The notes: generated from the letters alone by a model not told the origin. A DNA stretch of 64,000 nt from an uncultured Alphaproteobacteria bacterium (GCA_944391705.1 CALXUN010000003.1:26208-90207); one strand, 5' to 3'; numbered from the stretch's first letter, positions 8,718 to 11,451 are shown. Numbers and translations: made by a program.

Positions 8718-9584
8718 ATGATTAAAACAGCGGAAGCGGTGTCGCTTGGACACCCTGACAAAATGGCGGATTATATTTCGTCTTATATTTTAGACAGGAT
8801 GATTGAACAAGACGCGGCGGTCAAATATGCCGTTGAAGTAATGGTAAAAGATAATACGGTTGTGTTGGGCGGTGAAATCACGGGTGATGTAAACCTGGCA
8901 AGAATTAATTTTTATGTTACCGAAGCGCTGGCGGAAATCGGGTACGATAAGTTTTACAGCCATCGTTGGGGAAATTACGCCATTAATCCCGAGAAACTGC
9001 AAATTATCAATCTTATCGGCAAGCAGTCGGCAGATATTTCACAAGGAGTTGAACAAGACGGCTGGGGTGATCAGGGGGTATTTGTCGGTTACGCTTGTCA
9101 AGGTACGGGCAACATCAGCCGCGAACAATATCTGGCCAAAAAATTATGCAACGCTTTATATGAGTATGCTTTGCAAAACATCCACCTGGGCATTGACATC
9201 AAAACGCAGATTACACTTAATGAGCTTGGCGGTGTGGAAACGGCGGTTGTGGCTGTTCCGATGCTTAAAGATGTTGACCTGACGACTTTTATTGTTTTGA
9301 CGCTGGGAGAGGAGCCGGAAAATATTATTGTCAATGGCACGGGAACATATAAATATCATTCATCCGTGGCCGATTGCGGCGTGGCCGGTCGAAAGCTTGC
9401 GTGCGATTTTTATGGAACGGCTTGCCCGATCGGCGGCGGAAGTCCATGGACAAAGGATGCCAGCAAAGCTGACGTAACACTTAATTTTTATGCCCGTAAA
9501 CTGGCCTTGGAATATCTGCAAGACAATGACGAGTGTTTTGTTTACCTTTCATCTTGTATCGGCCGGGATTTCAACATTGCTTAA
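8718..9584 (+). CDS. divergent, C-terminally shortened S-adenosylmethionine synthetase (MetK)-like protein
   Basis: GHPDKMADYISSYILD aligns with the MetK GHPDKIADQISDAVLD. GGEITG, IGKQSADISQGV, GWGDQGVFVGYA and ...DCGVAGRKLACDFYG..GGGSPWTKDASKADVTLNFYARKLA align with the MetK GAGDQGLMFGYA and [37 protein letters not shown] blocks. It is about 290 aa against about 385 and lacks the C-terminal ~80 residues. AAGGAA RBS. Confidence 0.75.
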   Translation: MIKTAEAVSLGHPDKMADYISSYILDRMIEQDAAVKYAVEVMVKDNTVVLGGEITGDVNLARINFYVTEALAEIGYDKFYSHRWGNYAINPEKLQIINLIGKQSADISQGVEQDGWGDQGVFVGYACQGTGNISREQYLAKKLCNALYEYALQNIHLGIDIKTQITLNELGGVETAVVAVPMLKDVDLTTFIVLTLGEEPENIIVNGTGTYKYHSSVADCGVAGRKLACDFYGTACPIGGGSPWTKDASKADVTLNFYARKLALEYLQDNDECFVYLSSCIGRDFNIA

Positions 9585-10652
9585 ATCCACGGTATCTGTT
9601 GTATCGGTTTCAAACCAGACATCATGAACCGAGCCGGTAGTACCGTCGGTTTTGATAAATGTACCGGTTTGTTTGTGCTCGTTGCCGGACGCGTCAACAG
9701 TTGTTGAGGCTTCATAATCAACATTAATCCCCGCCACACCGGCTTGTTCTAATGAAAGCAATTCGCCCTCATCAACCATACCGTTGCCGTTGGCGTCTTT
9801 CCAGACTTTGACATTGTTCCATTCGGTATCTGAACTGTTAAACACACCGTCGTTGTTGCTGTCTAAATCTTTGAGAGCTTCAAAGCCGTTCTTTGCGGTT
9901 TCCCCGGACGAAAGAACGGAGTTATTGCCAAACAACTCCGTTCCGTCATCAATCACACCGTTACCGTTTACATCCCTGACCAGCAGTCCGTCATCAGAGC
10001 CCACCCAGCCGGACTTCTCGGCAAAGTCATTACCGTCATGGTCAAAGTGTGTCCCGTTCTCAACGCCGGTGGTTTCCACGCCATCGCCATCCAAGTCCAA
10101 AACCAGCGGCGAACGCGACGTCTCGGCTACGGATAATGTTTCAGATATTAAACAGATTTGCTCTTCATTAACAGGTATAGGACATACTTCTTGAGTGATT
10201 CCTAAATTAAAAGATATATTTTGATTTTCATCAATTTCTATTCCTTTAGTTGCAAACATTTCTTTTATTTTATCAAATATATCATCTTTATTTTCTTCAA
10301 TGTAATCCCAAGATAATCTCACCAATTCACTTATACCAACAGCGATAAGAGTTGTAGAAAGTATACCTAAGGATGAGGGAATTAATAATACAGATATACC
10401 TGTCGCTAAAGCATATTGTCCAATAGGGCCTAAATCATGTTCAGTTATTGATTGTTGAATAGCAAAAAATGCTCCATAATAACCATATTTTTTTATTAAA
10501 CCGCCCAAATGGTGTAAATCCTCTGTAGGCATTTTCGAAATGCAATCGCCAATTTTAGTTAAAGAAACTTCGCCTCCTGTTGTTGCCAAATTCTCCAATT
10601 TGTCAAAGAATTTATCTATAACATCTTTATCTTCTTGTGCAATTTCAGTCAT
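9549..10652 (-). CDS. chimeric secreted protein: AT-rich N-terminal module with a hydrophobic Gly-zipper-like segment, fused to a C-terminal EF-hand/dockerin-like Ca-binding repeat module
   Basis: The C-terminal half carries repeated Dx[DN]xDG loops (LDLDGDGVET, DHDGND, RDVNGNGVIDDG, DLDSNNDGVFNSSD, DANGNGMVDEGE). The N-terminal ~165 aa are encoded by about 28%-GC DNA, against about 50% for the remainder. The ATG overlaps the stop of the upstream membrane-protein gene (ATGA). Confidence 0.65.
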   Translation of the reverse strand: MTEIAQEDKDVIDKFFDKLENLATTGGEVSLTKIGDCISKMPTEDLHHLGGLIKKYGYYGAFFAIQQSITEHDLGPIGQYALATGISVLLIPSSLGILSTTLIAVGISELVRLSWDYIEENKDDIFDKIKEMFATKGIEIDENQNISFNLGITQEVCPIPVNEEQICLISETLSVAETSRSPLVLDLDGDGVETTGVENGTHFDHDGNDFAEKSGWVGSDDGLLVRDVNGNGVIDDGTELFGNNSVLSSGETAKNGFEALKDLDSNNDGVFNSSDTEWNNVKVWKDANGNGMVDEGELLSLEQAGVAGINVDYEASTTVDASGNEHKQTGTFIKTDGTTGSVHDVWFETDTTDTVDLSNVEIPADTR

Positions 10653-11451
10653 TTATTTGTCTCCTTGAATATTTGATTGCCCGTTCAAAAAAATAATAGT
10701 ACCGTTTAGCCTGAAAAATTAATGTACATAAAGGTATTAATCCAAATAAAGTAACAGTAGAGAAGTTTTTAATCATAAAAGCAAAATTATCTTTGGCAGG
10801 ATTAAATGTTGTATAAATTAAAGGTAAATAAGCCACAAGGCATATACAAAATAGAGGTATACATTTATTTATGAACTTTTTTTCATTTACATATTCTTTA
10901 TGTGTCTTGTTTACTGAATAAAAAATCCTATATACAGTATATGGACAGGTATTGTAACTTAAAGTGATTCCCAATGTAATATATAATAATACAATGAAAG
11001 AAATATATGATTTTTCACTAACGGTACAAAATATACAAAATGTTCGTAGAATCTCAGGAAACGATATATTTCCAGAATCTAGCGAAGCTATTATTATGGA
11101 AAAAAGGGTTGCTATGAAAAAAATAATATATAAATTGCGTTGATATATAAAACGGTTGTCGGCAATATAATCTTTTTTATAACAGACCCAAATACTAAAA
11201 GTAACAAAAATAAGACTGCATGTAGATATTACCATTTTTAAATTATATAATGCAGATTGATTAATTTGTTTATAGAAAAGAACAATAAAAAATATCCAAC
11301 TATAAATTAATAACCCTAAAACCAGAGTAGAATATATGGGATGTTTTGAGGTTGGTGTTTCCATTTGTATAAGTTTTTTCTTATACGGATTATCATCTTC
11401 CAACTGTTCGCTGAGCTTATTTTCATATAAATTATACTGCTTAAAAAACAT
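10645..11451 (-). CDS. polytopic membrane protein (about 6 TM), co-transcribed with 9549-10652
   Basis: 268 aa with multiple hydrophobic helices, encoded by AT-rich DNA. No motif. Confidence 0.55.
   Translation of the reverse strand: MFFKQYNLYENKLSEQLEDDNPYKKKLIQMETPTSKHPIYSTLVLGLLIYSWIFFIVLFYKQINQSALYNLKMVISTCSLIFVTFSIWVCYKKDYIADNRFIYQRNLYIIFFIATLFSIIIASLDSGNISFPEILRTFCIFCTVSEKSYISFIVLLYITLGITLSYNTCPYTVYRIFYSVNKTHKEYVNEKKFINKCIPLFCICLVAYLPLIYTTFNPAKDNFAFMIKNFSTVTLFGLIPLCTLIFQAKRYYYFFERAIKYSRRQIND

Follow-up and report, generated by a model that had tools for sequence, protein, structure and literature searches.

A truncated RTX/SPM gene and its membrane-protein partner in an alphaproteobacterial genomic island: a probable decayed cassette of a type I-secreted toxin/immunity-like system

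The subject of this contribution is a pair of overlapping genes in a 64,000-nucleotide (nt) stretch of DNA from an uncultured Alphaproteobacteria bacterium (GCA_944391705.1, CALXUN010000003.1:26208-90207), referred to here as the window. The downstream gene codes for a 367-amino acid (aa) protein and the upstream gene for a 268-aa polytopic membrane protein, mem268. A sequence-only reading had described the pair as a candidate toxin/immunity cassette, in which a chimeric Ca-binding secreted protein is accompanied by a membrane immunity protein. We compared the pair with related loci and contigs (L001-L019) fetched from other sources. The 367-aa open reading frame (ORF) is a real chimera made of an AT-rich N-terminal module (N-module) and a host-like Ca-binding C-terminal half. 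We are confident that what the window holds is a truncated cassette of an RTX protein with a self-processing module (SPM), the two parts of which are joined at nt ~10130.

Both ORFs lie where the sequence-only reading placed them (Table 1) and are uninterrupted over 367 and 268 codons. The stop of the 268-aa gene lies over the start of the 367-aa ORF, as had been noticed, the overlap being 8 nt long (ATGACTGA) and not the 4-nt ATGA that had been proposed. An AAGGAG Shine-Dalgarno sequence is located just 5' of the 367-aa ORF start, and a promoter/terminator scan of window positions 9300-14000 found no terminator between the two genes. From the overlap and the Shine-Dalgarno sequence, both of which agree with the earlier claim of co-transcription, we infer that the two genes are co-transcribed.

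The composition of the 367-aa ORF breaks sharply. The GC content is 31.7% in codons 1-180 and 49.5% in codons 181-367, and the GC content of third codon positions (GC3) is 0.166 in the N-terminal part (aa 1-175) and 0.542 in the C-terminal part (aa 176-367), with other genes of the window at 0.44-0.51. Because GC3, i.e., the composition of synonymous sites, differs, the break is not an amino-acid effect. In a sliding window, GC3 rises sharply between codons ~151 and ~166-181. The independent contig L019 has only window nt 10130-9557 in common with our locus (93% nt identity), with other sequence on both sides, and since only the SPM block is shared, a recombination junction can be placed at nt ~10130, about codon 175. 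The chimera proposed earlier is thus borne out by GC, by GC3 and by the L019 block; its junction, put at nt 10150-10200 (codon ~160), was near the mark and has to be moved slightly 3'. In L019, the SPM block is located at 433-1006 and runs beyond the truncation point of the window copy (...NVEIPADIAALPNVEGFGNVHDL); GC-rich unrelated sequence with NPYG/NPHG-type peptide repeats precedes it and AT-rich membrane-protein ORFs follow it.

Judged by sequence similarity, the C-terminal half is a self-processing module of the FrpC/ApxIVA type (PF26745), a described family of which the module of N. meningitidis FrpC has a solved structure (PDB 6SJW/6SJX). Residues 182-351 match residues 1-172 of 6SJW with E=9.7e-42 (phmmer), and the identity to the FrpC SPM is 43% over 172 aligned columns. 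The identical ORF of L006 carries PF26745 ('SPM') as a precomputed assignment; a Pfam scan of the window ORF itself gave no SPM match. The functional residues were mapped according to the analysis of FrpC by Kuban et al. (PMC7078468). All four EF-hand-like Ca sites are kept (D186/D188/D190/G191/D221, D227-E239, D264-D268 and D286-E297), the stabilising W451/W519 pair is present as W216 and W284, and G477, G491 and D579 of FrpC are also conserved. The sequence-only reading was therefore right about a host-like Ca-binding half with Dx[DN]xDG loops and wrong in calling it dockerin-like (no dockerin match was found in Pfam for the 367-aa ORF at E<=0.1) and in taking it for an export module.

The window SPM departs from FrpC at the cleavage site. 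The scissile Asp414-Pro415 of FrpC is Ser181-Pro182 here, and the proposed fifth, transient Ca site is altered at two positions, D478 of FrpC being Asn243 and D414 being Ser181. In FrpC, the Asp of Asp-Pro is the nucleophile, the side chain of which forms the anhydride; the D478N substitution slows cleavage only moderately, and according to PMC7846742, D414A abolishes it. The homologues indicate that Ser in place of Asp is not a private mutation of the window copy: among the 110 closest homologues bearing the motif P-[LIV]-x-[LV]-D-L-D-G-D-G, the dipeptide is Ser-Pro in 102, Thr-Pro in 3 and Asp-Pro in 2, and the homologues have in common the upstream motif [IL]-x-x-x-F-x-T-A-E-x-x-x-S-P. In a Ser-Pro SPM, the Asp-anhydride route would not be available, and cleavage of whatever kind is only hypothetical.

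The N-module contains a hydrophobic Gly/Ala/Ser-rich segment of ~37 aa (aa ~79-115, Kyte-Doolittle), the Gly/Ala-rich stretch that had drawn attention to it in the first place, and is predicted to be all-helical. The AlphaFold2 (AF2) model built with 18 aligned homologues has a predicted local distance difference test score (pLDDT) of 50 and a predicted template modelling score (pTM) of 0.38; it is unreliable and shows only 'all-helical', so that the structure prediction suggested earlier yielded helical content and no usable fold. Of the family searches proposed for the two halves, that with the C-terminal half led to the SPM and that with the N-module gave no match in Pfam or PHROGs; no Pfam Colicin match was found for the N-module at E<=0.1. 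The N-terminus, as read from the sequence, is acidic, hydrophilic and free of a Sec signal (MTEIAQEDKDVIDKFFDK), which does not favor the Sec-secreted adhesin that the sequence-only reading had named as its own alternative.

The N-module family is small. An exhaustive profile search of 1.84 billion proteins returned 23 representatives, 15 of them below 1e-10. In the 10 best-scoring matches, the module begins no later than residue 11, and in all complete examples the Ser-Pro SPM comes next. The long members, 1,419 and 1,767 aa in length, contain 13-14 RTX motifs and end in the manner typical of RTX proteins. The impression given by the first homologue list, that all relatives are short, was rejected as a likely artefact: searches with domain-sized queries listed matches at most ~1.65x and ~1.75x the query length, by which full-length multidomain proteins were hidden. 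The sequence-only reading had proposed a search for homologues of the N-module fused to other C-termini. This was never the case; instead, one conserved SPM bears many N-modules.

Among 74 short SPM proteins, the regions before Ser-Pro form at least 24 unrelated N-module clusters. N-module heads that are 25-40% identical bear identical ~40-aa linkers before Ser-Pro (alignment A4; P0004/P0092 and P0105/P0109/P0112/P0115), which argues for recombination just upstream of the SPM, with breakpoints also ~40 residues upstream of it besides the junction seen in the window.

The product of the partner gene has 6-7 predicted transmembrane (TM) helices (AF2 pLDDT 87.7), as expected of the polytopic protein described earlier, finds no match in Pfam or PHROGs and is full length relative to all 38 homologues. 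The evidence that partners and modules belong together is genetic linkage. A mem268-family gene is located directly upstream of the window-type N-module or its remnant in 10/10 distinct locus types with a detectable module; among the fetched loci, L015/L016 alone have a mem268-family gene and no detectable module. Measured against the window pair, partner and module lose identity in parallel, from 100/100 down to 35/35%, with some exceptions such as L003 (68/91%) and L001 (48/63%). Other modules have other partners: ankyrin proteins pair with a second N-module family (22 members) in 3 independent loci, and a membrane protein of 297/299 aa (mem297/299) pairs with a third module type. In L004 (5949-8970), an 833-aa protein combines a Phage_lysozyme N-module (E=4e-6), some RTX-like repeats and a truncated Ser-Pro SPM, and the gene in front of it codes for a 155-aa protein that has a clear Sec signal peptide; judging from these domains, the pair looks like a peptidoglycan-hydrolase effector, again built on the SPM, and a candidate immunity protein of the periplasm. 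Orphan partner genes persist by degraded toxin fragments in housekeeping neighbourhoods in L002, L013 and L017. The architecture envisaged by the sequence-only reading, in which a killing domain that varies is placed N-terminally on a conserved part of T1SS type (T1SS, type I secretion system) and a membrane immunity protein goes with it, fits these comparative data except for the C-terminal half of the window protein as export module, and a toxin/immunity function is probable for cassettes of this type.

The intact layout can be read from the relatives. The genes hlyD-hlyB are divergent from an array of units, each composed of a partner gene followed by an N-module with SPM, and only the last unit of the array is continued by RTX repeats over ~1,500-2,000 aa and by a secretion signal at the C-terminus. 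In L001, a gut metagenome-assembled genome labelled 'uncultured Azospirillum sp.', hlyB (726 aa) is divergent from a four-gene series: a 177-aa membrane protein (mem177), a 410-aa protein with another N-module and an SPM truncated inside, mem283, which is a homologue of the window membrane protein, and a 2,071-aa RTX protein that starts with the N-module of the window. L010 contains hlyD, hlyB, an ankyrin-repeat protein, a 316-aa truncated module with SPM, a mem268 homologue and a 2,387-aa RTX protein; L011 and L012 have the two cassettes of L010 in reverse order, both truncated, and L003 and L004 show further module combinations. The exporter and membrane-fusion genes are intact in L003, L010, L011 and L012, and truncated cassettes are found in L001, L003, L004, L010-L012 and L014.

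Every cassette in L004, L005 and L010-L012 is bounded by a conserved, AT-rich and nearly perfect hairpin of ~50 nt, GCCGCTTAG-TTTATTAAAATTT-loop-ATTTTAATAAGTTAAG (L010 5880-5912 and 7893-7925; L011 4335-4367, 6157-6189 and 8013-8045; L004 8972-9004 and 10695-10727). Folded as RNA, it reaches -17 to -23 kcal/mol (z -4 to -8), and it is located between hlyB and the first partner gene, directly after each truncated SPM at any cut point, and at the array end by a tRNA. Its position after truncated SPMs accounts for the ...AA followed by the stop with which many SPM fragments in databases end. The hairpin could be a recombination or insertion site, loosely resembling attC of integrons. It is absent from the window, which was searched with up to 3 mismatches.

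The window copy has lost most of this layout. Its ORF stops 9 codons past the SPM end, and beyond window nt 9612 it is no longer homologous to the full-length gene of L001. It contains neither RTX repeats (no HemolysinCabind match in Pfam) nor a C-terminal T1SS signal, both of which the full-length homologues have. Nowhere within the 64 kb is there a full-length RTX gene, a second SPM or an intact hlyB, and there is no HlyD or TolC among the flanking ORFs. The divergent fragment of an RTX-type ATP-binding cassette (ABC) exporter reported by the sequence-only reading is present: it is 74% identical at the nt level to the intact hlyB of L001 and has Thr where the catalytic Cys would be, which makes it a C39-like domain of the HlyB type. 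A second such fragment is located further to the right and is 89% identical to the first at the aa level. A working secreted toxin, as had been imagined for this place, is thus not what the window contains: having neither RTX repeats nor a secretion signal, and being accompanied by exporter fragments only, the cassette is a decayed orphan. Within the window only the mem268 gene looks functionally complete, the toxin stub being, from its domain content, not exportable; the partner is plausibly retained as orphan immunity, and the gene is best annotated as a truncated RTX/SPM remnant with a probable orphan immunity gene.

Table 1. Position of the gene pair, its parts and neighbouring features in the window (SPM, self-processing module; TM, transmembrane).
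Feature	Coordinates	Strand	Details
Truncated RTX-family gene	9549..10652	-	367 aa: N-module and complete SPM
AT-rich N-module, aa 1-180, candidate membrane-active toxin domain	10113..10652	-	GC3, hydropathy
SPM homologue, aa 181-367	9549..10112	-	Ser181-Pro182 at nt 10107-10112; phmmer vs 6SJW
268-aa polytopic membrane protein gene (mem268), candidate cognate immunity	10645..11451	-	
Divergent intergenic region, AT-rich (24% GC), presumed promoter region	11452..11855	.	
hlyB 5' fragment, 174 aa, C39-like domain only	11856..12380	+	Peptidase_C39 E=3.6e-22
Small 2-TM ORF	~12330-12583	-	second AT-rich cassette with the 317-aa gene
317-aa membrane protein, soluble C-terminal part	12609..13562	-	
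Second hlyB 5' fragment, ~192 aa	13968..14544	+	Peptidase_C39 E=2.7e-24
Phage-type S-adenosylmethionine-synthetase-like (MetK-like) gene, C-terminally truncated	8646..9584	+	
Left ~100-bp direct repeat	6274..6375	+	87 nt downstream of tRNA-Met (6111-6187)
Right direct repeat copy	14545..14645	+	92-97% identical to 6274-6375

The remnant is part of an 8.3-kb island that is bracketed as a whole by two direct repeats 8.27 kb apart, and these repeats, judged by their sequence and position beside tRNA-Met, look like att-type island boundaries. The order of genes in the island is DUF2924, a frameshifted serine recombinase, the truncated MetK-like gene, the toxin stub with its partner, the first hlyB fragment, two membrane-protein ORFs and the second hlyB fragment, the hlyB homology of which ends at ...DVLMVA, exactly where the right repeat starts. 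The MetK-like gene covers positions 4-73/138 of the S-AdoMet_synt_C profile and 1-282/346 of phrog_1569 and is without the C-terminal ~60 residues; at its 3' end it shares 36 nt with the 3' end of the truncated RTX gene, and both genes are cut there. The two membrane-protein ORFs form a second AT-rich unit that is divergent from the second hlyB fragment, is cut by the 3' end of the other fragment and has no toxin gene. They are possible orphan immunity genes; the 317-aa protein has no Pfam or PHROGs match, and its homologues in the related loci are only the window's own copies. Two neighbouring blocks may be recorded as well. The phage-like block at 6699-9584 consists of DUF2924 (phrog_11806), the serine recombinase/integrase (phrog_95), which appears frameshifted (7133-7756 and 7606-7938), a 180-aa ORF and the MetK-like gene. 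Directly outside the right repeat, at 14783-15826, there is a Fic/DOC protein with a C-terminal winged-helix helix-turn-helix domain and an (SSQK)n-like low-complexity linker.

The best explanation of these observations, to which we assign a probability of roughly 0.7, is that the window holds an 'orphan' cassette, decayed and no longer exportable, from a toxin/immunity-like system of type I-secreted RTX proteins. In an intact system of this kind, the unfolded protein would be exported C-terminus first by a HlyB/HlyD/TolC-type machine via its C-terminal signal, and extracellular Ca2+ would then fold the RTX repeats and the SPM. The N-module would be presented or possibly released between Ser and Pro of the ...F-x-T-A-E-x-x-x-S-P... 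junction. The combination of a hydrophobic hairpin and a partner in the inner membrane points to a toxin that damages membranes and an immunity protein that resides in them, in the manner of pore-forming colicins: the window-type N-module, with its long hydrophobic helical hairpin, would damage the inner membrane of a competitor, and the co-transcribed 268-aa inner-membrane protein would shield the producer and its kin. New pairs of N-module and partner might be exchanged by recombination, with the conserved SPM and, in the window, also the hlyB 5' end serving as homology arms, and displaced truncated copies would stay behind, upstream. In the window, the RTX body and the exporter have been lost, leaving the intact partner gene and the 367-aa toxin stub.

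Several points weigh against this explanation. The support for a toxin/immunity role is comparative, and the toxicity of the N-module, its action on the membrane, immunity through the partner, processing at the Ser-Pro site and the way in which cassettes recombine are all inferred. The N-module is without detectable similarity to known toxins in the Pfam and PHROGs scans, and its AF2 model is the unreliable one mentioned above (pLDDT 50). Promoter-like sites in window positions 9300-14000 are at chance level (28 vs 24.4 expected). Since D414A abolishes cleavage of FrpC, the known chemistry should not release the N-module when Ser stands in place of Asp. The window copy may be a pseudogene without present function. 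Finally, the pair formed by the N-domain of FrpC and FrpD in Neisseria has been interpreted in terms of adhesion, not of toxin and immunity (PMC5472700).

The last point leads to the first alternative, in which the pair would serve adhesion or retention as proposed for FrpC and FrpD: the N-module would be a non-toxic anchor or adhesin, the upstream gene would code for a binding partner or a secretion/holding factor, and the N-terminal variability would reflect host or phage pressure. We consider this unlikely, even though the frpDC locus of N. meningitidis has the same order (an upstream partner, then N-domain, SPM and RTX), FrpD binds the FrpC N-domain with a dissociation constant of ~0.2 nM (PMC5233953), a role as adhesin has been proposed (PMC5472700), and Pfam and PHROGs found no toxin domain in the window N-module. 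The partner here is helical and polytopic, hence of the inner membrane and not surface-exposed. The same SPM elsewhere bears the Phage_lysozyme N-module with a Sec-signal partner, or has ankyrin-repeat partners. Ankyrin repeats are one immunity class of polymorphic toxin systems. Moreover, orphan partners outlast their cognate N-modules, which is expected of immunity genes and not of adhesin receptors.

Alternatively, both ORFs may be pure pseudogene debris, that is, non-functional leftovers of a dead T1SS locus in a decaying island, with selection no longer acting on them. In line with this possibility, neither copy of hlyB is more than a fragment, the RTX gene and the MetK-like gene that converges on it have each been cut at their junction, the neighbouring serine recombinase is frameshifted, and direct repeats bracket the island beside a tRNA. 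We nevertheless hold it to be distinctly unlikely: neither ORF of the pair is interrupted, the partner gene has kept its full length compared with all 38 homologues, an intact partner beside a degraded toxin gene recurs in relatives, and the locus is 100% identical in four independent metagenome contigs, an identity that recent common ancestry fits too. The notion of a Sec-secreted cellulosome/dockerin/EF-hand adhesin, the composition of which would shift through amino-acid content only, was rejected and can be given next to no credence, as the Dx[DN]xDG loops are only superficially dockerin/EF-hand-like (with weak EF-hand Pfam matches in some homologues), there is neither a Sec signal nor a dockerin match, the SPM is matched at E=9.7e-42, and the GC shift is at synonymous sites.

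If the toxin/immunity explanation of the window cassette is extended to its relatives, a more general and more doubtful proposal can be made, which we put forward tentatively. The Ser-Pro SPM RTX proteins would form a large class of type I-secreted polymorphic antibacterial toxins, a mirror image of contact-dependent growth inhibition (CDI) and Rhs systems, and the Ser-Pro SPM would work by a Ca2+-triggered processing chemistry other than the Asp-Pro anhydride route. One possibility within this proposal is an N-to-O acyl shift at the X-Ser bond, a 'clip without link' by which the toxin would be released outside the cell, and FrpC/FrpD of Neisseria could then be a derived toxin-immunity-like pair.

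SPM-bearing RTX proteins have been on record since 2004. According to a 2017 review (PMC5472700), FrpC can be dispensed with in infection models, and immune pressure may explain why its N-terminus varies. In the related loci described here, the SPM appears as a conserved joint onto which dozens of unrelated N-modules, each with a dedicated upstream gene, are swapped, and the presence of a lysozyme module with a periplasmic partner among the cassettes makes a role as interbacterial toxin directly testable. If such a role is confirmed, the polymorphic-toxin concept would reach type I secretion with its polarity inverted. The occurrence of Ser-Pro in 102/110 of the closest homologues also bears on SPM chemistry and on SPM-based protein-ligation tools (NeissLock), as Ser-Pro modules either are not cleaved or are cleaved by another route.

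The SPM/RTX family, RTX bacteriocins and polymorphic toxins are already known, and it is plausible that the T1SS mirror-image architecture is a new variant. The closest described system is that of FrpC. Its domain order equals that of the full-length relatives (variable N-domain, SPM, RTX repeats and C-terminal T1SS signal), the partner gene is directly upstream in both, being frpD in Neisseria, and a HlyB-type exporter with a C39-like domain is present. The differences from FrpC are Ser-Pro in place of the essential Asp-Pro, Asn at the position of D478, a polytopic inner-membrane protein as partner where FrpD is an outer-membrane lipoprotein, uncultured gut alphaproteobacteria as hosts and, in the window copy, truncation right after the SPM.

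With polymorphic toxin systems (CdiA-CT/CdiI, Rhs, MafB), the loci have in common one conserved region combined with many unrelated toxin-candidate modules, an adjacent specific partner gene for each module, arrays of truncated 'orphan' cassettes in which part of the conserved region is left as a handle for recombination, and variable and constant parts that differ in composition. The arrangement is, however, mirrored: the variable module is N-terminal (residues 1-180), the partner gene is 5', the orphan cassettes are located upstream, between the exporter and the full-length gene, and export is by T1SS, whereas the template of 2012 (Zhang et al., PMC3482391) requires a C-terminal-most toxin domain and a 3' immunity gene. 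Our literature searches, the coverage of which is incomplete and does not prove absence, returned no description of a T1SS/RTX system with polymorphic N-terminal toxins or of a Ser-Pro SPM.

T1SS-exported antibacterial proteins of alphaproteobacteria and related bacteria are likewise known and can be likened to the loci by description, not by sequence. They include the RTX bacteriocins of Rhizobium, Agrobacterium and Xylella (e.g., RzcA), the mechanism of which is uncharacterised according to a review (PMC3034196), and Cdz of Caulobacter, which is described (PMC5380434) as a T1SS-secreted, cell-surface-associated glycine-zipper bacteriocin. The Cdz proteins are small and, unlike the related loci here, have neither an SPM nor RTX repeats. 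Pore-forming colicins (A, E1, Ia) have a helical domain with a ~40-aa hydrophobic hairpin and a polytopic inner-membrane immunity protein. By analogy, the hydrophobic hairpin of the window N-module and its polytopic inner-membrane partner may be compared with such a pair, although colicin immunity proteins have 3-4 TM helices and the partner described here has 6-7.

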